From positions 58,601 through 122,600 of the forward strand of contig JBAQQB010000197.1 in assembly GCA_049306275.1 (NCBI GenBank): DNA of 64,000 bases. Direction: 5' to 3'. The notes below the pieces were generated by a model. That model was not told where the DNA came from. It worked only from the letters and a program-made list of their open reading frames with translations, and searched no databases. Source of the DNA: Saprospiraceae bacterium. Lineage in GTDB: Bacteria; Bacteroidota; Bacteroidia; Chitinophagales; Saprospiraceae. A program made the translations under genes and the position numbers. Positions 3,717 through 60,667 of this stretch are shown one piece after another (the first letter of the stretch is position 1; each line of letters opens with the position of its first letter).

Positions 3717-3733
3717 GAGTTTATAAGTTTATG

Positions 3734-3767
3734 AGGGTATGAGTTTTTGAAGAAAAACTCATACCCT
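3734..3767 (+). repeat. Perfect 15-bp stem / 4-nt loop hairpin between cysD and cysN
   Basis: AGGGTATGAGTTTTT (3734-3748), loop GAAG, AAAAACTCATACCCT (3753-3767). Flanked by related words (GTTTATAAGTTTATGAG ... AAAAACTCAAAAACT). Confidence 0.85.
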
Positions 3768-3790
3768 TAAAAACTCAAAAACTATTAAAG

Positions 3791-5056
3791 ATGAACGAAA
3801 TCAATTATACCGACATGGAACTCCTGCGCTTCACCACAGCAGGAAGCGTGGACGACGGAAAGAGCACCCTCATCGGAAGGTTGCTGTACGATAGCAAGTC
3901 CATTCTGGAAGACCAATATGAAGCGGTGAAACTGAGCAGTGAGCGCAGGGGCGAAACCGAGGTCAACCTGGCCCTGCTGACCGACGGCCTCAAGGCGGAG
4001 CGTGAGCAGGGCATCACCATCGATGTGGCCTACCGCTATTTTTCCACCCCGAAGCGCAAGTTCATCATCGCAGATACGCCAGGTCATATCCAGTACACCC
4101 GCAATATGGTGACCGGCGCATCCACGGCCAACGTCGCGCTCATTCTGGTGGATGCGCGGCAAGGGGTGGTGGAGCAGACCCGCCGTCACGCCATCATCGC
4201 GTCCCTGCTCCAGATTCCACACATGGTGGTCTGCATCAACAAGATGGACCTGGTGAATTACGACGAGGAGAGATATGAGCAGATCCGCTACGAGTTCGAA
4301 AGCTTTGCTTCCAAGCTCGACGTGCACGACATTTCTTTTGTGCCTATCTCCGCCCTGCGCGGCGACAATGTGGTAGATCGCTCCGCCAACATGACCTGGT
4401 ATCAGGGCCCCACCCTGATGTACTACCTCGAAAACGTGCACATTGCCAGCGACCACAACTTCATCGACTGCCGCTTCCCTGTGCAGCTGGTGATCCGGCC
4501 CAATACCGACGACTACCACGACTACCGGGGTTATTCCGGACGGGTGGCAGGCGGAATTTTCAAGAAGGGCGACAAGGTGATGTTGCTGCCCAGCGGGTTC
4601 GCGTCCACCATTTCCCGCATCGAAACCTACGACGGTGAGGTGATGGAAGCCTTCCCGCCCATGTCGGTGACCATTTTGCTCGAAAACGACATCGACATCA
4701 GCCGTGGCGATATGATCGTCAGGGAAAACAACATCCCCGAAATCACCCAGGATGTGGACGTGATGATCTGCTGGTTCAACGAGCGGCCGCTGCAACTGAA
4801 CGGGAAATACGCCCTTCGCCACACGACCCAGGAAATGCGCTGCGTGGTGAAAGATATTCGCTATAAATTGGACATCAACACATTGCATAGAAATCTGGTG
4901 GACAAGGAGATCAAGATGAACGACATTGCGCGGATTGCTCTCCGTACTACCAAACCCATTTTCGCCGATTCATACCGCAAGAACCGCATAACCGGGAGCC
5001 TGATCCTGGTCGATGAAGGGACGAACGAAACGGTCGGAGCCGGTATGATCATTTAA
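3791..5056 (+). CDS. cysN: Sulfate adenylyltransferase subunit 1 (GTPase)
   Basis: 421 aa. G1 GSVDDGKST, G3 DTPGH, G4 NKMD. No fused APS-kinase domain. Confidence 0.95.
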   Translation: MNEINYTDMELLRFTTAGSVDDGKSTLIGRLLYDSKSILEDQYEAVKLSSERRGETEVNLALLTDGLKAEREQGITIDVAYRYFSTPKRKFIIADTPGHIQYTRNMVTGASTANVALILVDARQGVVEQTRRHAIIASLLQIPHMVVCINKMDLVNYDEERYEQIRYEFESFASKLDVHDISFVPISALRGDNVVDRSANMTWYQGPTLMYYLENVHIASDHNFIDCRFPVQLVIRPNTDDYHDYRGYSGRVAGGIFKKGDKVMLLPSGFASTISRIETYDGEVMEAFPPMSVTILLENDIDISRGDMIVRENNIPEITQDVDVMICWFNERPLQLNGKYALRHTTQEMRCVVKDIRYKLDINTLHRNLVDKEIKMNDIARIALRTTKPIFADSYRKNRITGSLILVDEGTNETVGAGMII

Positions 5057-5065
5057 CAGCCAACT

Positions 5066-6109: not shown

Positions 6110-6118
6110 TGCCTGCGC

Positions 6119-7213
6119 ATGAAAATCCTGAATGTGGTTGGCGCCCGTCCCAATTTCATGAAGGTGGCACCCTTGCACAGGGCTTTTTCCAGCCGGAGCG
6201 GCGTGGTCTCAAAAATTGTGCACACAGGGCAGCACTATGATGACCGGATGAGCGACATCTTTTTCAGGCAGTTGGATCTTCCCCAGCCTGATTTTTTTCT
6301 TGGCGTGAGCGGCGGAACACAAACACAGCAAATAGCCAGGATCATGCTGGCCTTTGAGCAGGTGCTGGCACAGGAACGCCCCGACCGCGTGGTGGTGGTG
6401 GGCGATGTGAATTCCACCCTGGCCTGCGCCCTCGCTGCCGCTCAATCCGGCGTGCCGGTGGCCCACGTGGAAGCCGGCCTGCGCAGCGGCGACCCGGAGA
6501 TGCCCGAAGAGATCAACCGCATCCTGACCGACCGCCTTTCCGATCACCTATTCGTCACCGAACAGGCCGGGACGGACAACCTGCTCAAGGAGGGTATTCC
6601 CCAGGAAAGAATACACCTGGTGGGCAATGTCATGATCGATACCCTGGTTTCAAACGTAGAAAAAGCGCGGAGGCTCGGCAACCTGCGGGCGCTGGACCTG
6701 GACCCCGGCCATTACGCGCTCATGACCATGCACCGCCCCTCAAACGTCGACCGCCTGGAAGGTTTGCTGGCGATTACGGCGATCATGGAGAAAGTGGCTG
6801 CGCATCACCCCATTGTCTTTCCAGTTCATCCCCACACCAAAAAGCGTGCTCTGGAGCAGGGGCTTTGGGAGAAATGGCGCAATATCGCAGGACTGACGCT
6901 GCTGGAGCCCCAAGGGTACCTGGAATTCCTCAACCTCTTGCTGCATGCTTTTCTGGTCATTACCGACTCGGGAGGCGTTCAGGAGGAAACCACTTACCTC
7001 GGCGTGCCCTGTTTTACATTTCGAAAAACGACAGAACGCCCGGTCACGGTGACCCTTGGCGCCAACGAGCTGTTCAGGGAACTGGACCCGGAAAAAGTGT
7101 ACGCGCGGTTTCTGGAATTACTCGCCGGCAAGGGCAAACAGAGCGCCATCCCGCCGCTTTGGGACGGAAAGGCCGCTGATCGGATCGCTTCGATTTTGCT
7201 GGGCGAAGAGTGA
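6119..7213 (+). CDS. wecB: UDP-N-acetylglucosamine 2-epimerase (non-hydrolysing; WecB/WbpI-like)
   Basis: 364 aa. KILNVVGARPNFMKVAP, HVEAGLRSGD, ITDSGGVQEE motifs. Confidence 0.9.
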   Translation: MKILNVVGARPNFMKVAPLHRAFSSRSGVVSKIVHTGQHYDDRMSDIFFRQLDLPQPDFFLGVSGGTQTQQIARIMLAFEQVLAQERPDRVVVVGDVNSTLACALAAAQSGVPVAHVEAGLRSGDPEMPEEINRILTDRLSDHLFVTEQAGTDNLLKEGIPQERIHLVGNVMIDTLVSNVEKARRLGNLRALDLDPGHYALMTMHRPSNVDRLEGLLAITAIMEKVAAHHPIVFPVHPHTKKRALEQGLWEKWRNIAGLTLLEPQGYLEFLNLLLHAFLVITDSGGVQEETTYLGVPCFTFRKTTERPVTVTLGANELFRELDPEKVYARFLELLAGKGKQSAIPPLWDGKAADRIASILLGEE

Positions 7214-7231
7214 TACGTACTTTTACCATTT

Positions 7232-7975: not shown

Positions 7976-7981
7976 TTTTCC

Positions 7982-9094: not shown

Positions 9095-9101
9095 ACAAGA
9101 T

Positions 9102-10034
9102 ATGCGGCCAAGCGACAAGATCTATGTAGCAGGACACAACGGCATGGTGGGCTCGGCCATCGTCCGCAAACTGCGGCGCGAAGGGTTCGAAAACCTGGCG
9201 CTGCGCACTTCCCGGGAGCTCGATTTGCGCAACCAGCAGGCGGTAAACGAGTTTTTTGCGGCGGAAAAACCCCAATACGTCTTTCTCGCAGCCGCAAAAG
9301 TAGGGGGCATCCTGGCCAACGACACCTACCGCGGGAATTTCATCTACGAAAACCTCATGATTGAGTGCAATGTGATCCATGCCGCCTACCAGCACGGGGT
9401 CAAAAAGCTGCTTTTCCTGGGGTCTTCCTGTATTTACCCCAAAATGGCTCCCCAGCCCCTGAAGGAAGAATACCTGCTGACGGGCTTGCTGGAGCCCACC
9501 AATCAGCCATATGCCATCGCCAAGATTGCGGGAATCGAGATGTGTAATGCCTACCGGGCACAATACAATTGCGACTTTATCTCCGTGATGCCCACCAATC
9601 TCTACGGTCCTAACGACAACTTCGATCTGGAGACCTCCCATGTGTTGCCGGCTTTGCTGCGCAAATTTCACGAAGCCAAAAAATACCACGAGCCCTCTGT
9701 GACCCTTTGGGGATCGGGCACGCCCCTGAGGGAGTTCCTGCATGTCGACGACCTGGCCGACGCCTGTTTCTACCTCATGCAGACCTACAACGAGCCGGGC
9801 CTGATCAACATAGGAACGGGAGAAGATATTGCCATCAAGGACCTCGCCCTGCTCATCAAGAATATTGTGGGCTACGGAGGCGCCATCGAACACGACCTCT
9901 CCAAGCCCGATGGCACGCCCCGCAAACTGCTGGATGTGAGCAAGCTGGCCAAGGCCGGCTGGAAGGCCAAAATACCACTGAAAGAAGGCATCAGAGGCGT
10001 ATACGAAGGATTGAAAAACGAACCCTGGTACTGA
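9102..10034 (+). CDS. fcl: GDP-L-fucose synthase
   Basis: Start chosen at ATG 9102 ([20 protein letters not shown]); the listed ORF start 9060 lies inside gmd. YAIAKIAG catalytic motif. Confidence 0.93.
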
Positions 10035-11110
10035 TGAACCATACCTATGTAGCTATCATGGCGGGGGGAGTGGGGAGCCGCTTCTGGCCCGCCAGCCGCA
10101 CCGAGCGGCCCAAACAATTCCTGGACATTCTAGGGGTGGGGAAATCCTTGCTGCGCCTCACTTTCGAACGCTTTTTGAACCTGTGTCCCGCCGGCCACAT
10201 TTTTATCGTCACCAACCGCCAATACCGCGATCTGGTGCTGGAGCACCTGCCAGAACTGGATCCCAGCCAGGTGCTCTGCGAGCCTTCGCGCAACAATACC
10301 GCCCCTTGCATCGCCTATGCGGCATTCCGGATCAACGCCATCGATCCCGATGCCAACCTGATCGTCGCTCCCTCCGATCACGTCATTCTCGACCAGGCAA
10401 CTTTTCTCAAGACCGTTCAACAAGGCCTGGATTTTACCGCGAAAGAAGAGGCCCTGCTCACCCTCGGCATCCGTCCCACCCGGCCCGATACGGGGTACGG
10501 ATATATCCGTTATGAGAGCGCGGAGGCGGCGCCTGGCATACACCCGGTGGCGCAGTTTACGGAAAAACCGGGCAAGGAAAAGGCAAGCGCCTTTTTAGCC
10601 AGCGGCGATTACCTCTGGAACGCGGGTATTTTCCTGTGGCGCACAGCAGTTGTACTCCGCGCTTTTCAGCAACACGCTGCAGCGATTCACGAGATATTGG
10701 GGTGTGAACCGGAGGTTTACAACACGCCGGGCGAGCAGGCCTTCATCGACCGGCAGTACCCTTTGACGCCCAACATTTCCGTCGACTTCGCCATCATGGA
10801 AAAGGCTTCGAACGTCTTTGTCATGCCCTCCTCTTTTGGATGGTCGGACCTGGGCACCTGGGCCTCCCTGCACGAAGAATCGCCAAAAGACGAGGACGGG
10901 AATGTGGTGCAGGGAAAAAAAGTAGTGCTGAAGAACGTAGCGGGCTCTCTGATCCGCGTACCGGCTGAAAAAATAGTCGTCATAAAGGGCCTGGAAGACT
11001 ATATCGTCGTAGACGAAGGAGACATCCTCATCATTTACCCCAAATCCGAAGAACAGGAGATCAAGCAAGTGACGGAGGAGATACGCCGCCGTTTTGGAAC
11101 AGCGTACTAA
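10034..11110 (+). CDS. manC: Mannose-1-phosphate guanylyltransferase
   Basis: Start at ATG 10034 overlapping the fcl stop (TGATG). [22 protein letters not shown] nucleotidyltransferase motif. The upstream 109 aa of listed ORF 9707.. lie out of frame inside fcl and are Arg/Pro-rich junk. Confidence 0.88.
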   Translation: MNHTYVAIMAGGVGSRFWPASRTERPKQFLDILGVGKSLLRLTFERFLNLCPAGHIFIVTNRQYRDLVLEHLPELDPSQVLCEPSRNNTAPCIAYAAFRINAIDPDANLIVAPSDHVILDQATFLKTVQQGLDFTAKEEALLTLGIRPTRPDTGYGYIRYESAEAAPGIHPVAQFTEKPGKEKASAFLASGDYLWNAGIFLWRTAVVLRAFQQHAAAIHEILGCEPEVYNTPGEQAFIDRQYPLTPNISVDFAIMEKASNVFVMPSSFGWSDLGTWASLHEESPKDEDGNVVQGKKVVLKNVAGSLIRVPAEKIVVIKGLEDYIVVDEGDILIIYPKSEEQEIKQVTEEIRRRFGTAY

Positions 11111-17683: not shown

Positions 17684-19949
17684 CCGTGCTTATTTCCTGC
17701 TTCGGCGTTTTCTCCGGCGCCAGCCAGTGCAACAGCGGCGGGATCAGCAACAGGTCGCATACTACCGCGCTGACCAGGGTGGCGCTGATCAGCAAGCCGA
17801 TCGTGACGCTGGGCGGATGGATCGAGAACAACATGACCAGAAAGCCTGCGAACAGCAAGAGCGTGGTCAGCACAATGGCCTTGCCGGTCTCCACGAAAGT
17901 AATGCGGATGGCCTCGTCCTGCGGCAGGCCCTTCGCCAGCGCCAGCCTGTATTTGCTCAGAAAATGAATGGTGTCGTCGACCGCGATGCCGAAAATGACC
18001 GAAAAGACGATCGACACCCCGGCTTCCAGCTCAATGCCGAAATAGCCCAGTATCGCCCCTGCCACCAGCAAGGGAACGAGGTTGGGAATGAGGGAGACGG
18101 CCACCATCCTGATATCGCGGAAGAGCAGGCCCATCATGATGGCTACGATCAGGATGGCGAGTCCCATACCTTGTATCAGGCTGCTTCTGACGTATTCCGA
18201 ATTTTTATCCACAATCAGCCCCGTGCCGGTGATGCGCACCGAAATTTTATCCTGATCCGTGTTGGCAGCTACCCACTGGTTAATGGCCGCATTCATGATC
18301 TTGATGCTGTCGGCGCCCACGTCGAGCAGCCGGGCGGTGATGCGCGCCTTCTGCCCGTCGCGGCTGATGAGCACGTTGGCGCCGGTGCGGGGCATGTCTT
18401 CCACCAGGCGTTTGTAGCGGTTGTACTCCGCCTCGCTTTCGGGAAACCGGTACTCCTTCGCCTGGTTGCCGTGAAATAGCTGATGCATGCTCTTGTAGGC
18501 CGTCGCCATGGAAGCCACGGCCCTGATGGGCTCGTATTGCTTCACATGGTCCTCCACCATGCTGATCTGGCGCATGACTTCGTAATCGGTGGCCTTGTGC
18601 GGGGGCTTCACCGTAATGGCCACCTCCATGGGCCTGAATCCGGTAAATTTTTCTTCGAAAAATTTGAAATCGGCCGTAATCTTCTCCCCTCTGGGCAAAT
18701 TCCGGATCAGGGTGTAGTTTGTGGTGATCTGTGCGATGCCGATCAGGCATACTGTCAGGAATGCCAGGGAAGCCCAACCGATCTGCCGGGGCTTCTCCCT
18801 GGTGAAGCGGAAAAGCTGCTCCATCCGTCTGTTCCAGAAATTGTCGACCGTGCCGATTTTGACAATCTGGTCGGCGTGGAAAAGGGAGAGCAGGGAAGTG
18901 GTGAAAAACAGTACCGTGACATAGGCGATCAGCACGCCCGCCGCCGAGTTGAGGCCGAAGTCGCGAATGGGCTCTATGCGGCTTGTCACCAGGCTGAGGA
19001 ACCCCACCGCCGTCGTGGCCGATGTGAGAAAAGTCGCTAACCCGATTTCCTTGACCGTGGTCTTGATGGCCGTGGGCCTGGGATTCCCCTTCTGCAACTC
19101 GTCGATGTATTTCGACATGATGTGTATGACATCGGATGTGCCAACGATGAGCATCAGCACGGGGTAGAGCGCTGCCATGGCGCTGAGCTCGCGCCCCGTC
19201 GCCGCCAGGAAGCCCATGAAGAGCAATAAGCCCAACCCAATCGAGGCAATGGAGACCACAATGCCCCAAAACCGGCGGAAAATGGCCGCCATGACCAGGC
19301 TGACGAGCAGGCCCGCGATCAGGGACGACACCAGTACTTCCCTTTTTTGCATCTCCACCAGCTCTTTCTGGAAGTAAGCCCGGCCCAGGAAGTGGTAGTC
19401 TTCGAAAGCATACCCTTCGACCTGCCGCTCCAGCGCCTTCATCAGCTCGTCAGATTGGGACAGGGTGATGTTGGGGATGGTCTTGAGGTAGACCACCAGG
19501 GCCGTGCCCTCCGGGTCGATCAGGTTGTAGACCAGGCGGTCGTCGGCGAGCGCCTTTTTGCGGTCGGAGGGAAAGCGGCCGGGGTCGTCGAGGTGAACCG
19601 CCGGAATGGTGGTGAGCCCAAACGGCGTTTTTAGCGGGTAGGAGAACTGGGTGAGCGAAAAACTCTCCTCCACATGTGGCAGTTGCCTCGCCTTCAGGCT
19701 GAAATCGTGGGCACGGGCGAGAAAGGAAGAGTCGAACACGCCTTCCTTCCGCTCCAATGCGACGAGCAAAAAGTTGTCGTCCGTTTCAAACTCCTCGACA
19801 AATTCCCTGAAAAAGGCCAGGTCTTTATCGCCACGGGGAAAAAACTGCTCGAAGTCGAAAGAGAAACGCAGCTGAGGGATCAGGAAGGCGCTGATTAGCG
19901 CGAGGATACCGAAAATGATAAAAGAGGCAATCTGAAACGGGCGACTCAT
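17676..19949 (-). CDS. RND/MMPL-family membrane transporter
   Basis: 757 aa. Two blocks of about 5-6 TM helices, each preceded by a large soluble loop (SSD/MMPL layout). Confidence 0.8.
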   Translation of the reverse strand: MSRPFQIASFIIFGILALISAFLIPQLRFSFDFEQFFPRGDKDLAFFREFVEEFETDDNFLLVALERKEGVFDSSFLARAHDFSLKARQLPHVEESFSLTQFSYPLKTPFGLTTIPAVHLDDPGRFPSDRKKALADDRLVYNLIDPEGTALVVYLKTIPNITLSQSDELMKALERQVEGYAFEDYHFLGRAYFQKELVEMQKREVLVSSLIAGLLVSLVMAAIFRRFWGIVVSIASIGLGLLLFMGFLAATGRELSAMAALYPVLMLIVGTSDVIHIMSKYIDELQKGNPRPTAIKTTVKEIGLATFLTSATTAVGFLSLVTSRIEPIRDFGLNSAAGVLIAYVTVLFFTTSLLSLFHADQIVKIGTVDNFWNRRMEQLFRFTREKPRQIGWASLAFLTVCLIGIAQITTNYTLIRNLPRGEKITADFKFFEEKFTGFRPMEVAITVKPPHKATDYEVMRQISMVEDHVKQYEPIRAVASMATAYKSMHQLFHGNQAKEYRFPESEAEYNRYKRLVEDMPRTGANVLISRDGQKARITARLLDVGADSIKIMNAAINQWVAANTDQDKISVRITGTGLIVDKNSEYVRSSLIQGMGLAILIVAIMMGLLFRDIRMVAVSLIPNLVPLLVAGAILGYFGIELEAGVSIVFSVIFGIAVDDTIHFLSKYRLALAKGLPQDEAIRITFVETGKAIVLTTLLLFAGFLVMLFSIHPPSVTIGLLISATLVSAVVCDLLLIPPLLHWLAPEKTPKQEISTAI

Positions 19950-28003: not shown

Positions 28004-30997
28004 ATGAACAGACTGTACCTTTTCCCTTTGGCTGTCCTGCTTCTCTGGGCAGCCAATGGCGGCGTTTTCGCTCAGGAAACCTTTCCCTACAACGGGGTTT
28101 CCGACCAGCGCGAAGGGCTGTATGCCTTCACCGGCGCTACCATCTACACCACTTACAACCAGCAGCTGAATAACGCTACCCTGGTGATCCGCGATGGCAA
28201 AGTGGAAGCTGTCGGCACGGGTATCCCGGTTCCAGCCGGCGCCGTGGAGGTTCCCTGCGGCGGGAAAACGATCTACCCCTCCTTCATCGACCTCTACACG
28301 GATTACGGACTACCGGAACTGAAAACGGAAGGGCAGCCGGGCGGCCGCCGCACGCAGCTGCTATCAGATAAAAAGGGAGCCTATTCCTGGAACCAGGCGC
28401 TCAGGTCCGAGTTTCAGGCGTATGAAGTTTTTGCCCCGAACGAAAAAGCAGCCGAAGAACTACGCAAGACGGGCTTCGGCGCGGTGCTTTCCCACCAGAT
28501 GGACGGTATCTCCAGGGGCTCGGGCGCCTTGGTATTTACGGGAAATGACAACGCTCATACCCAGATCCTGACAGAAAAAGCTGCTCACCACCTATCCTTC
28601 AGCAAGGGGCGCTCTACCCAAAACTACCCCAGCTCGCTCATGGGCAGCATCGCCCTGCTGCGACAGACTTATTACGACGGGAAATGGTATGCCGCCCAGG
28701 GCCGCCAGGAAGAGGTCAACCTCTCCCTGCAGGCCTGGAACGAGCTGCAGTCCCTGCCCCAGGTATTCGAAGTGGGCGATGCGCTGGATGCGCTGCGGGC
28801 CGGCAAACTGGGCAAGGAATTCGGCGTGCAGTACATCCTCCGGGATGGCGGAAAGGCCTATCAGCGGCTCGACGAGATTAAAAAAACGGGCTCCCCGCTC
28901 ATCGTGCCCCTCAACTTCCCCGAAGCCTACGACGTGGAAGATCCCTTCGACGCCCTGCGCGTCGACCTGGCCGATATGAAGCATTGGGAACTGGCGCCCT
29001 CCAACCCCGCTCGGATCGCAGCCGCCGGCATTCCCTTCGCCCTCACGACGCATGGCCTGAAGAACAAGTCCGACTTCCGGGCAGCCCTCCGCAAGGCCAT
29101 CAAACACGGCCTATCGGAAGAAGATGCACTCAAAGCTCTGACCTACACCCCCGCCAATTTATTGGGAGCCTACGACCGGATCGGCAGCCTGGAGAAAGGC
29201 AAAGCCGCCAGCTTCCTCATCGCTTCGGGCAACATTTTCGAAGAAAATGAAGTGATCTACCAGCATTGGGTCAAAGGCCAGCCCTTCGTCCTCCAATCGA
29301 TGGAAACCCCGGAGTGGCTGGGCGAATTTGATTTGGAGGCCGGCGATCTGAAAATGCGCTGGGTTGTATCCAATGACATTTACAAACCCGATATGAAGCT
29401 GCTGGTGAATGACACCACCGAACTCAAGGTCAATTACAAATACGAGCAGGGCATCCTCACCCTGACTTTCGCCCGCGAAGAAGGAAAAGGCTTGGTGCGG
29501 CTGAGTGGCACGGGTTCCTCAAAAGGCTGGTTGGGTCGCGGGCAGCTGGAAGACGGAACCTGGGTGGACTGGAGGGCGACTCCTCCCGCAGAACAGCAAT
29601 TCAGCCTGAAGGGGAAAGGAGTGTATCAGGAAATGCCGGAAGTAATTGGCGAAGTGACCTATCCCTTCATGGCCTACGGCTGGACGAACCGGCCTCAGGC
29701 GGAGTCCATACTCATCCGCAATGCCACCGTCTGGACCAATGAAGCGGCTGGCATACAGGAAAAGACCGATATCCTGATCGAAAACGGCAAAATCGCCCAG
29801 GTGAGCCAGAACCTGCCCTTGAAAAGGGGCGTTTGGGAAATCGACGCCACCGGTAAGCACGTCACGCCCGGCATTATCGACGAGCACTCGCACATCGCCA
29901 TTACCCGCGGCGTCAATGAAGGCACGCAGGCCAGCTCGGCGGAGGTGCGCATCGGCGACGTGGTCAACTCGGAAGATATCAACATTTACCGGCAATTGTC
30001 GGGCGGGGTCACCATCTCCCAACTCCTGCATGGCTCAGCCAACCCCATCGGCGGGCAATCGGCCATCATCAAACTGCGCTGGGGCTTTACGCCGGAGGAA
30101 ATGATCTTCGACGCGGCGGCCCCCTTCATCAAATTCGCGCTCGGGGAAAACGTGAAGCAGAGCAACTCCAGCGACCCCAACCCCGTGCGCTACCCGCAGA
30201 CGCGCATGGGCGTGGAGCAGATCTACGAAGACTATTTCACCCGCGCCCGCGAATACGGCGCCCTGAAAAAGTCGGGCAAACCCTACCGGGTCGACCTGGA
30301 ACTGGAAGCCCTGCTCGAAATCCTGGAGAGCAAGCGCTTCATCACCTGCCACTCCTACGTGCAGAGCGAGATCAACATGCTCATGAAGGTGGCCGAGCGC
30401 CATGGTTTCCGCGTCAACACCTTCACGCACATTCTGGAAGGATACAAGGTGGCCGACAAAATGGCCAAACACGGCGCCGGCGGTTCCAGCTTTTCCGATT
30501 GGTGGGCCTACAAGTTCGAGGTGTACGAAGCCATTCCGCAAAACGGCGCCATCATGCACGAGCAAGGCGTGACCGTAGCTTTCAACTCCGACGACGCCGA
30601 AATGGCCCGGCGCCTCAACCAGGAAGCGGCCAAGGCCGTGAAATACGGCGGGGTGCCGGAAGAAGAAGCCCTGAAATTCGTGACCCTCAACCCCGCCAAA
30701 CTCCTGCACATCGATCACCGCGTGGGCAGCATCAAGCCCGGGAAAGACGCCGACCTCGTCATCTGGTCCGGCCACCCGCTTTCGGTCTATGCCAAAGCGG
30801 AAAAGACCTTCATCGATGGCATCAAGTTTTTCGACATTGAGGAAGATGCGGCGATGCGGGAGGCCGTGGAGCAAGAGCGAGCCCGGCTCGTGCAAAAAAT
30901 GCTGGCAGAAAAGAAAAAGGGCGGAAAGACACAACCAGGGACAGGACGCTACCGGCATTTGTACCATTGTGATCATGTGGAGGACGAGGGCAGGTAG
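28004..30997 (+). CDS. Large amidohydrolase-family protein (two amidohydrolase-like modules)
   Basis: 997 aa with signal peptide. C-terminal module has canonical GKHVTPGIIDEHSHIA. The N-terminal module has a degenerate site, GKTIYPSFIDLYTDYG. Confidence 0.85.
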   Translation: MNRLYLFPLAVLLLWAANGGVFAQETFPYNGVSDQREGLYAFTGATIYTTYNQQLNNATLVIRDGKVEAVGTGIPVPAGAVEVPCGGKTIYPSFIDLYTDYGLPELKTEGQPGGRRTQLLSDKKGAYSWNQALRSEFQAYEVFAPNEKAAEELRKTGFGAVLSHQMDGISRGSGALVFTGNDNAHTQILTEKAAHHLSFSKGRSTQNYPSSLMGSIALLRQTYYDGKWYAAQGRQEEVNLSLQAWNELQSLPQVFEVGDALDALRAGKLGKEFGVQYILRDGGKAYQRLDEIKKTGSPLIVPLNFPEAYDVEDPFDALRVDLADMKHWELAPSNPARIAAAGIPFALTTHGLKNKSDFRAALRKAIKHGLSEEDALKALTYTPANLLGAYDRIGSLEKGKAASFLIASGNIFEENEVIYQHWVKGQPFVLQSMETPEWLGEFDLEAGDLKMRWVVSNDIYKPDMKLLVNDTTELKVNYKYEQGILTLTFAREEGKGLVRLSGTGSSKGWLGRGQLEDGTWVDWRATPPAEQQFSLKGKGVYQEMPEVIGEVTYPFMAYGWTNRPQAESILIRNATVWTNEAAGIQEKTDILIENGKIAQVSQNLPLKRGVWEIDATGKHVTPGIIDEHSHIAITRGVNEGTQASSAEVRIGDVVNSEDINIYRQLSGGVTISQLLHGSANPIGGQSAIIKLRWGFTPEEMIFDAAAPFIKFALGENVKQSNSSDPNPVRYPQTRMGVEQIYEDYFTRAREYGALKKSGKPYRVDLELEALLEILESKRFITCHSYVQSEINMLMKVAERHGFRVNTFTHILEGYKVADKMAKHGAGGSSFSDWWAYKFEVYEAIPQNGAIMHEQGVTVAFNSDDAEMARRLNQEAAKAVKYGGVPEEEALKFVTLNPAKLLHIDHRVGSIKPGKDADLVIWSGHPLSVYAKAEKTFIDGIKFFDIEEDAAMREAVEQERARLVQKMLAEKKKGGKTQPGTGRYRHLYHCDHVEDEGR

Positions 30998-30999
30998 TT

Positions 31000-31024
31000 T
31001 TCAGTTTTTAATGTTCAGTTTTTA
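31000..31024 (+). repeat. Two direct copies of TTCAGTTTTTA between the two amidohydrolase genes
   Basis: 31000-31010 and 31014-31024 are identical 11-mers. Their reverse complement (AAAACTGAA) matches the CTGAA words at 44087-44114. Confidence 0.75.
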
Positions 31025-31041
31025 GTTATAATTATTTGATT

Positions 31042-32999: not shown

Positions 33000-33035
33000 A
33001 CAGGATTTGCAGGATGAATAACGAAAAGACAGGAT
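33000..33035 (+). repeat. Stuttered (A/G)CAGGAT words in the DUF4294|DinB spacer
   Basis: ACAGGAT at 33000, GCAGGAT at 33009 and ACAGGAT at 33029. GATTTGCA recurs at 33003 and 33040. Confidence 0.6.
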
Positions 33036-37489: not shown

Positions 37490-37553
37490 GTTTATGAGTT
37501 TACAGGGTCAGGAGTTTATTCATCACAACTCCTACCCCTATAAACTCATAAAC
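37490..37553 (+). repeat. 26-bp imperfect hairpin between mutL and the first rhomboid gene
   Basis: GTTTATGAGTTTACAGGGTCAGGAGT (37490-37515) pairs with ACTCCTACCCCTATAAACTCATAAAC (37528-37553) at 23 of 26 positions; 12-nt loop. Starts 2 nt after the mutL stop. Shares GTTTATGAG / AAACTCATA words with the 3734 hairpin. Confidence 0.8.
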
Positions 37554-41851: not shown

Positions 41852-41976
41852 CAAGCATTAAATTGTTGGTTGTCAACAGGCTAGTTTTTTCTCTTTGGGA
41901 GCAAGGGGGAGATGTTCTTTGTTTTTGTTGGAGGAAATATGCACTTTGACAAGGTTCTTACCGCAGTTATTTTTGG

Positions 41977-42010
41977 GACGCGGATGACGCGGGTGCTTCG
42001 CAACGCGGAT
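41977..42010. repeat. Left arm of the 34-bp inverted repeat flanking the GxxExxY gene
   Basis: GACGCGGATGACGCGGGTGCTTCGCAACGCGGAT. Reverse-complementary to 42427-42460 at 31 of 34 positions; the inner 17 bp are perfect. Confidence 0.9.
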
Positions 42011-42036: not shown

Positions 42037-42426
42037 ATGGATTTGCTACATAGAGATTTGACGGAAGGGATACTGAAGGCCTTTTTTGCGGTTTACAATG
42101 AACTCGGTTTTGGCTTTCTGGAAAGGGTATACCAAAATGCCTTATTCCTGGAATTAAAGGCTAGAGGATATGAGGTTGAGGTTCAAAAACCTATTCGTGT
42201 CATATATAAAGGCGTGCATGTTGGAGAGTACTATGCAGATATGGTTGTGAATGGACAGGTAATTCTGGAACTCAAGGCTGCATCTGCCATTATTCCGGAA
42301 TTTGAAAACCAGTTAGTGAACTACCACAGAGGAACGGAAATAGAAGTTGGATTGCTCCTGAATTTTGGGAAGAGCCCGCAGTTTAAAAGGAGAGTATTCG
42401 AAAATATAAGGAAAAGCCTTCGGTAG
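42037..42426 (+). CDS. GxxExxY protein (PD-(D/E)XK nuclease-like superfamily)
   Basis: 129 aa from ATG 42037. GFLERVY matches GxxExxY, followed by a YYADMVV...ILELK core. Visibly lower GC than its neighbours. Confidence 0.85.
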   Translation: MDLLHRDLTEGILKAFFAVYNELGFGFLERVYQNALFLELKARGYEVEVQKPIRVIYKGVHVGEYYADMVVNGQVILELKAASAIIPEFENQLVNYHRGTEIEVGLLLNFGKSPQFKRRVFENIRKSLR

Positions 42427-42460
42427 ATCCGCGTTGCGAAGCATCCGCGTTATCCGCGTG
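42427..42460. repeat. Right arm of the 34-bp inverted repeat flanking the GxxExxY gene
   Basis: ATCCGCGTTGCGAAGCATCCGCGTTATCCGCGTG begins on the base after the TAG stop (42424-42426). Confidence 0.9.
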
Positions 42461-42469
42461 CAAAAAATA

Positions 42470-44075: not shown

Positions 44076-44086
44076 CGCGTTCAAAA

Positions 44087-44114
44087 CTGAAGACTGAACA
44101 CTGAAATCTGAAAA
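44087..44114 (+). repeat. Four tandem heptamers CTGAAGA/CTGAACA/CTGAAAT/CTGAAAA in the moxR leader
   Basis: CTGAA recurs at 44087, 44094, 44101 and 44108 (period 7), between the TATATTTG motif (44068) and ATG 44129. No complementary arm is present. Confidence 0.8.
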
Positions 44115-44128
44115 CTCATAATAGTCTC

Positions 44129-48552: not shown

Positions 48553-48605
48553 TCCAGTATTTTTTAAAGAAAGCGGGAAAGCCCCGCTTCGCTTTTGATA
48601 TTTCG

Positions 48606-48613
48606 CAAAAGTA
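48606..48613 (-). promoter_or_regulatory. TAnnTTTG motif (TACTTTTG on the minus strand) upstream of the wzz-like gene
   Basis: The reverse complement of CAAAAGTA matches the consensus. A 7-bp hairpin (48571-48589) lies between it and ATG 48552. Confidence 0.35.
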
Positions 48614-48624
48614 GGAAAATGCCC

Positions 48625-50091: not shown

Positions 50092-50155
50092 AGTGAAGGG
50101 TGAAGGGTGAAGGGTGAAGGGATTTCTCTTCACCCTTCACCCTTCACTCTTCACT
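50092..50155 (-). repeat. 28-bp hairpin of four GTGAAGG heptamers and their complement, between mnmG and wzx
   Basis: 50092-50119 pairs with 50128-50155 (27 Watson-Crick pairs plus 1 G-U), with an 8-nt loop GGATTTCT. It lies 2 nt from the mnmG stop and 6 nt from the wzx ATG. No T-tract. Confidence 0.9.
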
Positions 50156-52023: not shown

Positions 52024-52070
52024 TGATTTCTATTTCCTTGTTTTTTTTGTACACTGATCGATTAAGATTT

Positions 52071-52111
52071 GTTTATGATCAGCACTGATCAAATCATAAT
52101 TGATCATAAAC
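52071..52111. repeat. 11-bp perfect palindrome arms (GTTTATGATCA / TGATCATAAAC) in the mnmG | M15 divergent spacer
   Basis: Arms at 52071-52081 and 52101-52111. Four GATC sites fall within 52056-52105, and CACTGATC is duplicated at 52052 and 52083. Confidence 0.7.
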
Positions 52112-52155
52112 CATCCTAATTAATCTGCGTACCTCTAAAATGCTTGCAAAGTTAA

Positions 52156-52163
52156 TACATTTG
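52156..52163 (+). promoter_or_regulatory. TAnnTTTG motif (TACATTTG) upstream of the M15 peptidase gene
   Basis: Exact consensus match ending 5 nt before ATG 52169, implying a near-leaderless mRNA. Confidence 0.4.
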
Positions 52164-52168
52164 GCGCT

Positions 52169-56111: not shown

Positions 56112-56159
56112 GGTGGCCGGCCTCCTTATCATTTCGCATCACCATAAAAAATTCAGAAA

Positions 56160-56687
56160 ATGAAAAATACGCTATTGATTTCGATCGCTTTTCTCGTATT
56201 CGGCCTGAGCAGTTGCACCGTGACCGATACGCACATCCAGGAAGAAATTGAGAATTTTTTAAAGCAATGTAACGTTCCCGATCTGGAATGCGACGGTCAG
56301 ATTGGCGCAGGCTTGAATTGCGGGCATACAGATTTTTTAATAGGCCCTTCCTGCCATCGATCCCTGGAACGCTCCAGCCGTTTTTCCATTAATTTACCGG
56401 GCATTGTAAGTTTCCGGGGAAACGGGAAAGCGTCGGTAAAGGTTAAGACGGAGTCGGTGGTTGCCAACCATATTCATCAGCCCTTTAGCGAAGATTCCGG
56501 GCTCTGCTCCCCCACCTATATCTATTACAAGGCAAGCTACGAGGCGGTTGGAGAGCTTGAATCGGAAGCCGGCGCCTCGATTATCAATTTTGCGACCGGA
56601 ACCTACGAAGACAGGCTGAAAAGGCTCAGCAGCGGAGAAAGATGCGCGAAGGCCGCGCATGCGGAGCCGCTACATTGTGGAGGATAG
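56160..56687 (+). CDS. Hypothetical Cys-rich lipoprotein
   Basis: 175 aa with lipobox FGLSSC and seven further Cys. No family recognised. Confidence 0.5.
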   Translation: MKNTLLISIAFLVFGLSSCTVTDTHIQEEIENFLKQCNVPDLECDGQIGAGLNCGHTDFLIGPSCHRSLERSSRFSINLPGIVSFRGNGKASVKVKTESVVANHIHQPFSEDSGLCSPTYIYYKASYEAVGELESEAGASIINFATGTYEDRLKRLSSGERCAKAAHAEPLHCGG

Positions 56688-56695
56688 TACGGGTT

Positions 56696-56727
56696 GAAAA
56701 GTGGGCGCCTTCTGACGCCCACTTTTC
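56696..56727. terminator. Bidirectional hairpin terminator between the convergent lipoprotein gene and lpxD
   Basis: Perfect 12-bp stem GAAAAGTGGGCG / CGCCCACTTTTC with 8-nt loop. The lpxD stop codon overlaps the right arm. Confidence 0.65.
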
Positions 56728-57658
56728 ATTTATAAAAGTTCTTGATAAGCTCCGGCAAATGCCTCAAAGCAGCCAGTTCGCGGTAGCGGATGCCCGACTC
56801 GTCGGCTGGCGCGCCGAAGTAGGTTTTGCCGCCTTCGAGGTCTTTTGACACGCCGGCGCCTGCCAGCACTACGGCGCCCTTGCCGATGCGCACGGCCTGG
56901 ATGACGCCTACCTGGCCGTAGAGCACTACTTCATCTTCGATGATCGTCTTTCCGCCGATGCCCACCTGTCCGGCGATGAGGCATCGTTTGCCGATGACGG
57001 CGCCGTGGCCTACGTGCACCTGCGAGTCGAGTTTGGTGCCTTCGCCGATGAAGGTGTCGCCCGAAACGCCCTTATTGATGGTGCAGCCCGCCCCGATCTC
57101 CACGTGGTCTTCGATGACGACGCGGCCGCCGGAGCGCCACTTGGTGTAGCCTTTTTCCGACTTTTTGTAATAGAACGCATCCGTGCCGATGATAGCGCCG
57201 GCCTGTATGGTTACGTGGTCGCCGATCACCGTGTGCTCGCCGATGTAAACGTTGGCCTGTATGTAGCAGTGGGCGCCGATGCGCACGTCGTGCGCGATCA
57301 CCACGTTGGGCTCGATGATGGCTGTGGGGTGGATATGCGCCTCCGGGCTGATATTGGCCGTCAGGGGCCGGAAGGGCCGGAACTCCCGCACCAGGCTGTC
57401 GTAGGCCTGGAAGGGTTGGTCACAGACCAGAATCGCCTTCCCCTCCGGGCAGATCGTCACATCGCTCAGGATGACGATCGTGGCTTCCGAATCGAGGGCT
57501 CTTTGAAAATATTTGGCCACGTCGGCAAACGTCACATCCCCCGGCTCCACTTTGTGGATCTCGTTGACGCCGGTGGCGTAAAGCGTTTCATCGCCGATCA
57601 GCTTTGCGCCGAGTTTATGCGCCAGCTCTTTTACAGGTATTGGTTCAGGAAATTTCAT
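56726..57658 (-). CDS. lpxD: UDP-3-O-acylglucosamine N-acyltransferase
   Basis: Start at ATG 57658 (MKFPEPIPVKELAHKLGAKLIGD). Long hexapeptide-repeat core. Upstream codons of the listed ORF translate a hairpin arm. Confidence 0.9.
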   Translation of the reverse strand: MKFPEPIPVKELAHKLGAKLIGDETLYATGVNEIHKVEPGDVTFADVAKYFQRALDSEATIVILSDVTICPEGKAILVCDQPFQAYDSLVREFRPFRPLTANISPEAHIHPTAIIEPNVVIAHDVRIGAHCYIQANVYIGEHTVIGDHVTIQAGAIIGTDAFYYKKSEKGYTKWRSGGRVVIEDHVEIGAGCTINKGVSGDTFIGEGTKLDSQVHVGHGAVIGKRCLIAGQVGIGGKTIIEDEVVLYGQVGVIQAVRIGKGAVVLAGAGVSKDLEGGKTYFGAPADESGIRYRELAALRHLPELIKNFYK

Positions 57659-57666
57659 TATTAAAA

Positions 57667-57721
57667 GATGAGAAGATGAGAAGGTGAGAAGGTGAAAATC
57701 CACTTTTCACCTTCTCACCTT
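57667..57721 (-). repeat. Four tandem octamers (GATGAGAA x2, GGTGAGAA, GGTGAAAA) forming an 18-bp perfect hairpin between polA and lpxD
   Basis: AAGGTGAGAAGGTGAAAA (57681-57698), loop TCCAC, TTTTCACCTTCTCACCTT (57704-57721). It lies 7 nt from the polA stop and 8 nt from the lpxD ATG. Confidence 0.9.
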
Positions 57722-57728
57722 AATTAAT

Positions 57729-60536
57729 TTAATGCGCTTCAAGCCAATTTTCCCCGACTCCCATTTCAACCACGATAGGTACCCTCAGGTTCGGCATGGC
57801 GTGCTTCATTTTATCTTCAATGAGGGGTTTGAGGGTGTCGATCTCGTTCTTGTGGGCGTCGAAGATAAGTTCGTCGTGCACCTGGAGGATCATTTTGGTC
57901 TGGTAGTTGCCTTTCGTTAGCAGTTCGTGGATATCGATCATGGCCAGTTTGATGAGGTCTGCCGCTGTGCCCTGGATGGGGGTGTTGATGGCGTTGCGTT
58001 CGGCATGGCTGCGCATGACGCCGTTGCGGCTGTCGATGTCGCGCAGGTAGCGGCGGCGGCCCATGAGGGTATTGACGAAGCCTTTCTTTCGTGCTTCGTC
58101 GACGGTTTTTTCCATGTAGTTTTTCAGGCCGCTGTATTGTTTGAAATAGTTGTCGATGAGGTCTTTGGCCTCCGAGCGGCTGATGTCGAGCTGGCGAGAG
58201 AGGTTAAGGGCTCCGGCGCCGTAGATGATGCTGAAGTTGACGGTTTTGGCGCGGTAGCGCTGCTCTTTGGTCACCTGATCGAATGGCACTCCGAAGACGC
58301 GGGCGGCGGTGGCGCTATGGATATCCTGTCCTGCCTGGAAGGCTTCCAGCATGGCTTCGTCGCCGCTGATCTCGGCGATGAGGCGCAGTTCGATCTGGGA
58401 GTAGTCGGCGGAGAGGATGAGATAGTCGTCATTCTCCGGCACGAAGGCTTCGCGCACTTTGGCGCCTTCGGGAGTGCGGATGGGGATGTTTTGCAGGTTG
58501 GGGTTGTTGGAGCTCAGGCGGCCGGTAGCGGCGAGCGCCTGGTTGAAGGAGCTGTGGATGCGGCCGGTGCGCGGGTTGACCATCTTGGGCAGGGCGTCGA
58601 CGTATGTCGATTTGAGCTTGGTGAGCCCGCGGTGGCTGAGGATGAGCTCGATGACGGGGTGCTCGTGGCTGAGCTCGCTCATCTTGTCTTCGTCGGTGGA
58701 GTACTGGCCGGTCTTGGTTTTTTGCCAGCGGTAGGGAATTTTGAGGCGGTCGAAGAGCACCTCTCCTACCTGTTTGGGCGAGGCGATGTTGAAGCGGGTA
58801 CCGGCCGATTCGTAGATTTTTTTCTCCAGTTCAATGATCTCTTTATCCAGTTCGAGGGAATAGCGGTTGAGGTAATCTGAGTCGACCTTCACCCCGTGGT
58901 ATTCCATATCAGCCAGTACGCGGATGAGGGGCTCTTCCATTTTGCGATAGAGGTCGTTGAGGCCTTCCTTTTCGAGGCGGGGGGCGAGATAGTCTTTGAG
59001 TTGGAGGGTGATGTCGGCGTCTTCACAGGCGTATTCGGAGACCTGGTCGACGGGTACGTCGCGCATGGTTCTTTGCTGGGCGCCCTTTTTGCCGATCAGT
59101 TGGTCGATGTGGATAGTCTGGTACTTGAGGTAAGTTTCCGCCATGTAGTCCATGTTGTGGCGAAGTTCGGGCTCCAGCAGGTAGTGGGCGAGCATGGTGT
59201 CGAAAACGGGCCCTTTGACCTCGATGCCATACCATTTGAGCACGATGGCGTCGTATTTGAGGTTTTGGCCGATCTTCTGGATATCGGGGTTTTCGAGCAC
59301 GGTTTTGAATTCGTGCACGACCTTCTTGGCTTCGTCCTGATTGGCGGGTACGGGCACATAAAAGGCCTCGTGGGGTTTTACGGAGAAAGAGAGTCCGACG
59401 AGTTCTGCCAGGTTGGGATCGATGCCGGTCGTTTCGGTATCCATGCAAAAGGCGAATTGCTCTGAGAGCATGCCGATGAGTTTGGCCCGTTTTTCCGGGG
59501 TATCGGTGAGATGGTAGGCATGGGTTACGTCGGCGATGGTTTTCTCCGCCACCGAGTGCGCGGGGGGCGGACTGGCGTGACGTTGCTGCTGCACGGGTTC
59601 TTCGGGAAAGAGCGAGCCCTGCATGCCGGGGGGGCTACTGGGGCCTGGCACAGGGTTTTCCTCTTCACCCAGTATCTGCCGGGCGAGGGTGCGGAATTCC
59701 AGTTCTTTAAAAATTTCCGCCAGGCGGTCTTTGTCGTAGGGTTCGATCTCGAAAGCGTGGGGATCGAACTGGATGGGCGCTTCGATATCGATGGTGGCGA
59801 GTTTTTTGGAGAGAAGGGCTTGTTCGGCGAAGGTTTCGACGCTTTCCTTTTGTTTGCCCTTCAGTTTGTTGGCGTTAGCCAGGAGGTTTTCGACCGAATC
59901 GTATTCTTCCAGCAGTTTGGCGGCTGTTTTGGGGCCGATGCCCGGGATACCGGGGATGTTGTCGACCGAATCGCCCTGCAGGCCGAGGATGTCGATCACC
60001 TGTTCGGGGCGTTTGATGCCCCAGTTTTCGCAGACCTCCTTGATTCCCCAGACCTCGATGCCGTTGCCGGAGCGGGAGGGTTTGTAGATGAGCACATTAT
60101 CGGTGACAAGTTGGGCGTAGTCTTTGTCGGGCGTTACCATATAAACGGTATAGCCGTCTTTTTCGGCCTGTTTGGCCAGGGTGCCGATCACATCGTCGGC
60201 CTCATAGCCGTCGAGTGTGACGACGGGAATTTTGAACCCTTCGAGGATAGCCTGGATGTAGGGGATGGCGAAGGTGATGTCTTCGGGCTGTTCTTCGCGG
60301 TTGGCTTTGTATTCCGGGAACATTTCGTGCCGGAAGGTAGGCGTGGGAAGGTCGAACGAAACAGCCAGATGGGTGGGGTGTTCGTTGCGGATGAGGTCCC
60401 ACAGCGTGCGCACGAAGCCGGCGACTGCCGAGGTGTTCATGCCCTTGGAGTTGATCAGCGGACGGCCGATGAAAGCGTAGTGGGCGCGGTAGACGAGCGC
60501 GTGGCCGTCGAGGAGGAAAAGTTTTTTGTGGTTCAT
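57729..60536 (-). CDS. polA: DNA polymerase I
   Basis: Start at ATG 60536 (MNHKKLFLLDGHALVYRAHYAF). 5'-nuclease, 3'-5' exo and pol domains; DYSQIELR and QVHDEL motifs. Confidence 0.96.
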   Translation of the reverse strand: MNHKKLFLLDGHALVYRAHYAFIGRPLINSKGMNTSAVAGFVRTLWDLIRNEHPTHLAVSFDLPTPTFRHEMFPEYKANREEQPEDITFAIPYIQAILEGFKIPVVTLDGYEADDVIGTLAKQAEKDGYTVYMVTPDKDYAQLVTDNVLIYKPSRSGNGIEVWGIKEVCENWGIKRPEQVIDILGLQGDSVDNIPGIPGIGPKTAAKLLEEYDSVENLLANANKLKGKQKESVETFAEQALLSKKLATIDIEAPIQFDPHAFEIEPYDKDRLAEIFKELEFRTLARQILGEEENPVPGPSSPPGMQGSLFPEEPVQQQRHASPPPAHSVAEKTIADVTHAYHLTDTPEKRAKLIGMLSEQFAFCMDTETTGIDPNLAELVGLSFSVKPHEAFYVPVPANQDEAKKVVHEFKTVLENPDIQKIGQNLKYDAIVLKWYGIEVKGPVFDTMLAHYLLEPELRHNMDYMAETYLKYQTIHIDQLIGKKGAQQRTMRDVPVDQVSEYACEDADITLQLKDYLAPRLEKEGLNDLYRKMEEPLIRVLADMEYHGVKVDSDYLNRYSLELDKEIIELEKKIYESAGTRFNIASPKQVGEVLFDRLKIPYRWQKTKTGQYSTDEDKMSELSHEHPVIELILSHRGLTKLKSTYVDALPKMVNPRTGRIHSSFNQALAATGRLSSNNPNLQNIPIRTPEGAKVREAFVPENDDYLILSADYSQIELRLIAEISGDEAMLEAFQAGQDIHSATAARVFGVPFDQVTKEQRYRAKTVNFSIIYGAGALNLSRQLDISRSEAKDLIDNYFKQYSGLKNYMEKTVDEARKKGFVNTLMGRRRYLRDIDSRNGVMRSHAERNAINTPIQGTAADLIKLAMIDIHELLTKGNYQTKMILQVHDELIFDAHKNEIDTLKPLIEDKMKHAMPNLRVPIVVEMGVGENWLEAH

Positions 60537-60577
60537 TTCCGGGAGAATGCGGTTTCCCGGCAAGATAAGGAAATAAT

Positions 60578-60667
60578 AGTGGAGAGTGGAGAGTTGAGAG
60601 TGGAGTGGAAAGCTTTTTGGCTTTGCCAAAAAGGCTTCACTTCACACTCAACTCTCACCTCTCCACT
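60578..60667 (-). repeat. About 90-nt imperfect hairpin of GTGGAGA/GTTGAGA words between the DUF3078 gene and polA
   Basis: Left arm 60578-60612 and right arm 60635-60667 are largely complementary. A perfect inner 8-bp stem CTTTTTGG / CCAAAAAG (60613-60620 / 60626-60633) tops the structure. The right arm abuts the DUF3078 stop codon. Confidence 0.8.

Follow-up and report, generated by a model that had tools for sequence, protein, structure and literature searches.

The stretch analysed here, called the window throughout, comprises 64,000 nucleotides (64 kb) of contig JBAQQB010000197.1 from a Saprospiraceae bacterium, and the elements in question are intergenic hairpins whose arms are built from tandem copies of a short word (stuttered arms). 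The window is a housekeeping stretch of a Lewinellaceae/Saprospiraceae (Bacteroidota) chromosome. Its PolA is 85% identical to that of the metagenome-assembled genome (MAG) L002 (JACJYD01) and 84% identical to that of MAG L003 (JADJTT01), and both MAGs are syntenic with the window across the polA-mnmG region. A first-pass annotation of the DNA had described five long hairpins at same-strand gene junctions. All five were recovered, filling the junctions cysD|cysN, mutL|rhomboid, mnmG|flippase (Wzx-like), polA|lpxD and DUF3078|polA, where they start 0-7 nt past the upstream stop and end 6-40 nt ahead of the next ATG. With one further element, they make up the 6 strong inverted repeats of the window, all 6 of them intergenic. 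Shuffling the window 30 times with its dinucleotides preserved gave 0.2 on average, so the number is well above what chance would give. Hairpin calls were based on reading of the sequence and on three independent scans in agreement. Inverted repeats were scored at the DNA level as matches minus 2.5 per mismatch, with a score of at least 12 and a loop of at most 40; this score replaced a sliding-window minimum free energy (MFE) scan, which was dropped as too noisy at 55% GC. Tandem arms were judged by Tandem Repeats Finder (TRF) and by a period score, for which values of 0.75 or more are reached by 0.2% of random segments.

The three clearest arrays are read from the reverse strand. At 50092-50155 (mnmG|flippase) the element consists of (GTGAAGG)x4, a loop and (CTTCACC)x4; TRF reports GTGAAGG x4.1 at 100%, and this arm is the sole intergenic G3N4 x4 quadruplex motif of the window. 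At 57665-57721 (polA|lpxD) there is a perfect 18-bp stem (57681-57698 / 57704-57721), two extra AAGATGAG words lie unpaired at 57665-57680, and the arm is reported as AAGATGAG x3.9. At 60577-60668 (DUF3078|polA) the 31-nt arms are made of GTGGAGA and GTTGAGA words (AGTGGAG x4 by TRF), and the TAG stop of the upstream gene sits within the base of the stem. The loop of this last hairpin holds a small palindrome, CTTTTTGGC TTT GCCAAAAAG, at 60613-60633, so that the stuttered arms wrap an inner hairpin. On the forward strand, the hairpin at 3714-3787 (cysD|cysN; arms 3714-3748 and 3753-3787, loop GAAG) has the TAA stop of the upstream gene (3714-3716) at its base. Its 35-nt arms have 30 matches (MFE -31.4) and contain the words GTTTATAA, GTTTATGAG and GGTATGAG. 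The hairpin at 37490-37553 (mutL|rhomboid; arms 37490-37516 and 37527-37553) is also on the forward strand. The tandem construction that the first-pass annotation ascribed to all arms is thus clear at 50.1, 57.7 and 60.6 kb and moderate at 3.7 kb (period score 0.70), but weak at 37.5 kb (0.53). Two arrays have a period of 7 (50.1 and 60.6 kb) and two a period of 8 (3.7 and 57.7 kb), with about 4 units in each array by TRF. The 5' arm is C-free or C-poor in all five hairpins, and a U-tract (at least 5 U within about 9 nt after the stem) is absent or marginal at each of them.

The sequences had been called mostly unrelated, with little more than a construction rule in common, and this did not hold. 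Two word families, GTGARGR and GTTTATGAG, account for the window hairpins. A GTGARGR core is common to the hairpins at 50.1, 57.7 and 60.6 kb, and the 37.5-kb hairpin has AGTTTATGAG and AAACTCATA in common with the one at 3.7 kb. AAACTCATA occurs 5 times against 0.16 expected and is confined to the spacers at 3.7, 37.5 and 44.1 kb.

Comparison with relatives indicated how the hairpins change. LpxD is identical in eleven assemblies, in which the 5' arm of the polA|lpxD hairpin contains AAGGTGAG x2 (the window and two others) or x3 (eight assemblies); the two forms differ by a single 8-nt word and are otherwise the same. At cysD|cysN, the hairpin of loci L209 and L212 is short (GGGTATAAGTTTTT/AAAAACTTATACCC), and a tandem array of AAAAACTC-like words on its 3' side has no pairing partner. 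In the window and in L207 the 5' arm is longer by 15 nt (two words), and these pair with that 3' array, which is the footprint that would be expected of reverse-complement copying. In L003 both orthologous junctions, DUF3078|polA and mnmG|flippase, are occupied by GTGAAGR hairpins, and the mnmG|flippase spacer is 72 nt, all of it hairpin, in both the window and L003. At DUF3078|polA the word is GTGGAGA in the window and GTGAAGA or GTGAAGG in L003, the change affecting several words in both arms, and the odd words (GTTGAGA; GTGAGGC) stand at mirrored positions of the two arms. Independent point mutation followed by compensation would be an implausible account of these words, and slippage with arm-to-arm copying (concerted evolution) would explain them economically. 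Slippage with mirrored copying, which had been offered as one of two possible origins, thus appears from the word polymorphism, the arm extension and the mirrored variant words to be a well supported way of generating the hairpins. Unrelated hairpins were also found at the same junction, namely at DUF3078|polA in L002, at cysD|cysN in L211 (a GGATGGATG hairpin), and between the flippase and the next gene in the window as compared with L002 and L003.

The last of these sites lies 3' of the flippase gene (window 48553-48624; L002 ~19442-19518; L003 ~19665-19749). A conserved TACTTTTG, which resembles the Bacteroidetes -7 box, is followed there by a hairpin that differs between genomes (GCGGGGCTTTCCCGC in the window, GATAGGAGATAGC... 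in L002 and L003). It could be a 5' untranslated region hairpin that turns over. The cysD|cysN spacer, for its part, measures 50-74 nt in every relative examined, and the other junctions of that operon measure 3-15 nt.

Class properties were obtained from a pooled set of the window, 80 genome loci and 120 metagenome loci (~2.2 Mb), in which genes were called by a GC-frame rule checked on the window. This set gave 325 non-redundant strong hairpins, 136 of them with stuttered arms, and 37 of the stuttered hairpins formed a subset not selected by word. Tandem arms occurred in 6/20 long-arm hairpins of the Saprospiraceae loci, compared with 0.2% of random segments. Among the 37 unselected stuttered hairpins the period was 7 in 28, 8 in 6, 9 in 2 and 11 in 1, and none had a period of 3-6, 10 or 12. 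The 5' arm of these hairpins had a mean GC skew of +0.71, positive in 35/37, as compared with +0.10 for ordinary hairpins, and this G-rich-5'-arm polarity is identical when read from either strand. The shared period of 7, the four units and the fixed polarity across the pooled loci are striking.

The 136 stuttered hairpins lay in convergent (43), co-directional (51) and divergent (10) spacers. Expressed as the share of available spacers with a stuttered hairpin, the values are 16% (convergent), 5.3% (co-directional) and 4.1% (divergent), a distribution of the same shape as that of ordinary hairpins. Stuttered hairpins are thus enriched between convergent genes and depleted between divergent ones. 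In co-directional spacers the stuttered hairpin lay a median of 3 nt past the stop and 22 nt before the next start, with 38 nearer the stop and 13 nearer the start. The median stem was 24 bp in stuttered and 15 bp in ordinary hairpins, and 18% of stuttered versus 30% of ordinary hairpins had at least 5 U in the 9-nt tail.

Some candidate explanations for the arms were tried and rejected. Mimicry of Shine-Dalgarno (SD) or anti-SD sequences by the arms was rejected, since SD-like 5-mers were not enriched (18/36 arms versus 15.6 ± 2.5 in shuffles). Stop codons in three frames were considered as the cause of period 7. Stops in at least 2 frames were found in 25/37 arms, but by a rough estimate ~56% of C-free heptamers would hold a stop by chance, so the stops look like a by-product of composition. 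An excess of G-U pairs on the sense strand was likewise set aside as a proof of RNA function; none was seen (18 versus 19), and no MFE bias was seen either.

The class is widespread and is not peculiar to this genome. Public metagenomes were scanned with the pattern GTGAAGGGTGAAG-N(4-34)-CTTCACCCTTCAC, and at least 120 contigs matched. A GTGAAGG hairpin is present in at least 117 distinct metagenome contexts, each on its own contig, and the class is not private to this lineage. Among the matches listed, GC ranged from 35 to 72%, one contig was assigned to Acidobacteriota (Thermoanaerobaculia) by protein names and one was labelled Eremiobacterota; only the word was held in common, with loops, unit numbers and flanks varying, and the mode of the unit number was 4 (53/117 arrays). 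The contigs among these matches also contained at least 101 further hairpins, many of them from other words, which included AAGGATG, AGTGAGG, GTTGAGC, GTGACAA, AATGTTG and AAATGAT, the period-8 words AGTGGATC and GTTGTTTT, and CGCGGAGN, which resembles the ACGCGGAT word found around the GxxExxY gene of the window. Viral contigs, taken as a control collection for word specificity, gave only 1 match, too few to be informative. A literature search on the exact words returned unrelated primer sequences only, and Rfam gave no match in the window at the gathering score; on 12 loci it gave sub-threshold generic microRNA-precursor matches only, which were spurious.

Some of the loci in the pooled set drew attention for other reasons. 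In L159 (5299-5372 and 5588-5656), TAACTGA heptamers form inverted arrays that make hairpins; the contig is the same as L202 in IMG/VR and is also filed as viral. The metagenome contig L164 (also L097) carries 18 tRNA genes on one strand within 2.7 kb (1421-4207), and nearly all of the spacers between them are filled by long hairpins, many heptamer-stuttered (AAGGATG, AGTGAGG, AAATGAT and others), with words that differ from hairpin to hairpin. The palindrome CGACATGACATGTCG...CGACATGTCATGTCG, present in three copies within 9 kb of L011, another Bacteroidota MAG (9128-9159, 9908-9939 and 17952-17983), looks like a conventional conserved-sequence repeat family.

The window elements are of a kind described in Xanthomonas; what is new is the words, the lineage and the fact that most lack quadruplex capacity. 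Rehm et al. (2015, PLoS One, PMC4692102) reported GGGNATC heptamers of Xanthomonas and Nostoc and studied GGGAATC in Xanthomonas. Those repeats have a unit mode of four and lie between genes; the coding strand bears the G-rich array, at most 50 bp from the stop or overlapping it. They are depleted between divergent ORFs, are transcribed and have no link to mobile elements, and 70-75 cases per Xanthomonas genome consist of two convergent (inverted) arrays for which a stem-loop is possible. The authors read them mainly as quadruplex formers and left their function open. The two sets are alike in the 7-nt unit, the ~4 units, the inverted pairing, the stop proximity, the divergent depletion and the polarity. 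They differ in that the words here are GTGAAGG, AAGATGAG, GTGGAGA and GTTTATGAG, in a Bacteroidota lineage; a G3-4 tract in each unit is here confined to the 50.1-kb hairpin, 4/5 window hairpins having no G3 quadruplex capacity, and strain-level gain and loss of words and copying between arms are documented here.

A second comparison is with the TAACTGA direct repeats of MacGregor (2015, PMC4679880), which occur in 2-6 or more copies, intergenic and in the sense orientation, a few nt upstream of starts in Beggiatoaceae, Cyanobacteria and some Bacteroidetes, with one inverted case. An excess of heptamers among long simple-sequence repeats was found by Mrazek et al. (2007), as reported in papers that cite it. 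In the window, a one-armed array on the forward strand at 44083-44116 (AAACTGA AGACTGA ACACTGA AATCTGA AAACTCA, that is NNACTGA x5) resembles the TAACTGA repeats in its position within 1-43 nt upstream of a start, but it has no exact TAACTGA unit, and the hairpin form seen in L159 is not described in PMC4679880. This array, which had been reported as one-armed and proved to be so, has period 7 and 4.9 copies at 81% (TRF), is in the sense orientation, ends 12 nt before ATG 44129 and is unchanged in 8 strain contigs. The other one-armed version that had been listed, an AGTTTTC-like, T-rich stutter at 30996-31027 between two same-strand amidohydrolase genes, is weak (72% matches).

Repetitive extragenic palindromic (REP) sequences, with the related bacterial interspersed mosaic elements (BIME) and REPIN, are similar in being extragenic palindromes at gene 3' ends or between co-transcribed genes with convergent and co-directional enrichment, for which mRNA stabilisation and termination have been proposed as roles. 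In REP families the sequence itself is conserved, including a GTAG or CGTC head, and a RAYT transposase is associated with it (PMC3733652); here only a short word is common, the arms are internally tandem, and change comes about by local slippage and copying. Rho-independent terminators and the Rho-dependent stem-loops that have no U-tract also lie just past stops, are commonest between convergent genes, and are symmetric and two-sided; a recent survey across phyla (PMC13613805) places 3' stem-loops at transcript ends of both kinds. The stuttered stems are much longer and their loops larger, no more than 18% of them carry a U-tract, and 4/5 window cases leave the next gene no room for a promoter. 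The origin of the stems has parallels in template switching, which can create and maintain hairpins (Monttinen and Loytynoja, PMC8794818; expansion of inverted repeats in yeast promoters, PMC13100816). There, too, one-step reverse-complement copying builds and homogenises stems and gives apparent compensatory changes. The cases differ in that they concern rRNA, microRNA and promoter inverted repeats, as opposed to the tandem-word arrays and slippage of the present elements.

From these comparisons the following picture emerges. The element is a palindromic simple-sequence repeat (SSR), a purine- or G-rich and nearly C-free array of ~4 units of 7 (sometimes 8) nt that starts at the stop codon or a few nt from it and is followed by a short loop and the inverted complement. 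Since the array is joined to its inverted complement, either strand can form a stem-loop of 18-31 bp that lacks a U-tract and fills the spacer. Judging from the relatives, slipped-strand mispairing adds or removes whole words, and copying from arm to arm, by template switching or gene conversion, mirrors words and their variants into the opposite arm, so creating, extending and homogenising the stem. Slippage and arm copying together produce quick turnover of the sequence and a lasting architecture. In the transcript, the elements would be 3'-end or intercistronic stem-loops, which may act as weak or conditional transcription stops and as barriers to 3' exonucleases, separating neighbouring cistrons, and they would be retained where exposure is limited to the 3' ends of genes.

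Leaky 3'-end or intercistronic stem-loops, working as attenuators or exonuclease barriers, are in our judgement the likeliest function and overall explanation, a reading in which confidence and doubt are about equally balanced. The spacer-class distribution, the proximity to stops, the two-sided symmetry and the fact that some junctions have acquired unrelated hairpins repeatedly all suggest a role at 3' ends. Several observations weigh against it. Counted on the sense strand, 18 mismatches are G-U and 19 A-C, so there is no G-U bias, and the sense fold is stabler than the antisense fold in only 2/5 window hairpins. In 4/5 window junctions 6-20 nt are left before the next ATG, which gives no room for a promoter; transcription must therefore pass through the hairpin, and efficient termination is ruled out there. 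In L002 the mnmG|flippase spacer is 0 nt, the two genes sharing the bases of an ATGA overlap between stop and start, so the hairpin is dispensable. At cysD|cysN, L206 (CysD 97% identical) has only a purine-rich one-armed (RAGKTTTAG)x4 at 10904-10957 with no stem (MFE -3.6), and L213 has a one-armed (GATGAAA)x8 before cysN at 6904-6975, likewise purine-rich and with no stem (MFE -3.3). The alignable cysD|cysN hairpins gave 1 compensatory pair in 4 sequences, which is not significant and not above shuffles. Finally, the spacer-class distribution and the stop proximity would also be expected of elements that are merely tolerated.

That possibility, in which the hairpins are a functionless mutational by-product of slippage in dispensable spacers and of palindromisation by template switching, is the main rival and a close one, though we consider it less likely than not to be the explanation. 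Such elements would be harmless near stops and in convergent spacers and would be purged from promoters, from the ~20 nt before starts and from coding sequence. The quick turnover fits it well, as do the dispensability of the hairpin (L002 lacks it, and L206 and L213 have one arm only), the polymorphism of word number inside a species, the lack of both G-U asymmetry and a stability advantage of the sense strand, and the near identity of spacer and hairpin at mnmG|flippase (72 versus 0 nt). It does not readily account for unrelated hairpins that recur at three junctions when only ~5% of co-directional spacers have a stuttered hairpin, nor for one word that recurs in Bacteroidota and Acidobacteriota; the consistent polarity (35/37), period of 7 and unit mode of 4 are not obviously predicted by neutrality. 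A site of action for a protein was also considered, in the form of phased binding arrays for a single-strand-binding protein of cold-shock-domain or S1-like type with a ~7-nt footprint, which would control downstream translation and be masked by the hairpin form. One-armed sense arrays just before starts (window 44083-44116; L213 (GATGAAA)x8 before cysN) are what such arrays should look like, binding arrays have been proposed for the TAACTGA repeats (MacGregor 2015, PMC4679880), and TAACTGA words are also found in the L159 hairpins. Most hairpins, however, abut stops and are commonest between convergent genes, where no start follows; SD-like 5-mers are not enriched, and the great diversity of words fits no single protein specificity, which leaves this account improbable.

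The perfect G3N4G3N4G3N4G3 of the 50.1-kb arm, together with the unit mode of 4 in the 117 GTGAAGG arrays among the matches listed, as in Rehm 2015, raised the question of G-quadruplex or other non-B regulators, in which the four G-tracts of the G-rich arm would compete with the hairpin and modulate transcription or translation. Four or more GGG tracts are present in only 1/5 window hairpins, and among the matches listed in only 16/117 GTGAAGG arrays and 9/53 four-unit arrays, and many words (AAGATGAG, AATGTTG, AAATGAT, GTGACAA, GTTTATGAG) contain no G-tract at all; we regard a quadruplex role as slightly more improbable still than phased binding arrays. Least probable of all, and only a slender chance in our estimate, is a mobile repeat family, either REP/REPIN with its RAYT transposase or a miniature inverted-repeat transposable element, inserting in intergenic DNA. 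The discrete presence and absence at mnmG|flippase and the use of one word at several loci per genome (two in L003, several per metagenome contig) would agree with insertion. No target-site duplication of more than 1-2 nt was found at mnmG|flippase when the occupied sites of the window and L003 were compared with the empty site of L002; moreover, copies have just the word in common, with varying loops, word numbers and ends, the conserved GTAG or CGTC head of REPs is absent, and the one-word polymorphism and the arm extension are local events.

A broader form of the leaky stem-loop reading is that heptamer-phased palindromes are a multi-phylum class of gene-end element whose polarity makes them work as factor-independent terminators or attenuators, with strength set by the number of words. 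We offer this as a speculation that is rather unlikely to be right. In such a terminator the 5' arm would be purine- or G-rich and the 3' arm and tail pyrimidine-rich and G-free, so that the part of the U-tract would be played by a long stem with a weak r(pyrimidine):d(purine) hybrid behind it, and slippage and template switching would keep re-setting its strength. On this view, the transcription machinery of Bacteroidota and Acidobacteriota would have selected GTGAAGR words convergently, and their presence in both phyla would not stem from common descent.

If the hairpins are active in RNA, they would represent an overlooked gene-end signal, long, made of repeated words and without a U-tract, that is poorly modelled by predictors requiring a U-tract, and single slippage events could alter its strength and so tune operon polarity at the level of strains. 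Even if they are neutral, they offer a clean natural system for slippage and template switching that build perfect stems, which bears on the origin of RNA hairpins. The hairpin spacers vary between otherwise identical strains; they are possible typing markers and may complicate short-read assembly. One architecture joins the heptamer SSR excess, the Xanthomonas GGGAATC pairs and the TAACTGA repeats.

The 3.7-kb hairpin lies within a polysaccharide-biosynthesis operon that includes UDP-glucose dehydrogenase, cysC, cysD, cysN, epimerases and glycosyltransferases. The same operon contains a NusG-family paralogue (PF02357) at 1639-2199, which is conserved in every relative fetched and is a candidate UpxY/RfaH-like, operon-specific antiterminator. 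Antitermination of the UpxY/RfaH type is one possible route of read-through past such a structure.

The arms reported around the GxxExxY gene proved to be a genuine 41-nt inverted repeat, 37/41 complementary, with a duplex energy of -72.5 kcal/mol. The left arm, built from ACGCGGAT words, lies at 41970-42010 and the right arm at 42427-42467, and the GxxExxY/PDDEXK_3 ORF (42037-42426, forward strand) occupies the 'loop', in the convergent cysS|GNAT acetyltransferase spacer. The nesting of the ORF in an inverted repeat resembles ORF-bearing intervening sequences. The arrangement is identical in 10 strain contigs, all of them occupied, and no empty site was found among these. GxxExxY homologues were found in none of the loci fetched; an exact look-up of the GxxExxY protein returned strains only, always in the same context, and an exact look-up of the GNAT protein gave no match.

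The sixth strong hairpin is a classical bidirectional terminator at 56695-56728, between convergent genes, composed of TGAAAAGTGGGCG, a loop and CGCCCACTTTTCA with A and T tracts. With its arrangement of A-tract, stem and T-tract, it demonstrates that canonical terminators exist in this lineage, contrary to the suggestion in the first-pass annotation that they are weak there. Two stretches listed there as word stutters without a stem were not substantiated. TRF reported no array at 33000-33035, and 52052-52111, in a divergent spacer, holds clustered TGATCA palindromes, which differ in kind from the stuttered hairpins. That spacer (52024-52168), which is AT-rich and lies upstream of mnmG, has four TGATCA (GATC) sites in ~60 nt and also holds the inverted repeat TTTATGATCA...TGATCATAAA. 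The TGATCA cluster could be an operator or a cluster of methylation sites.

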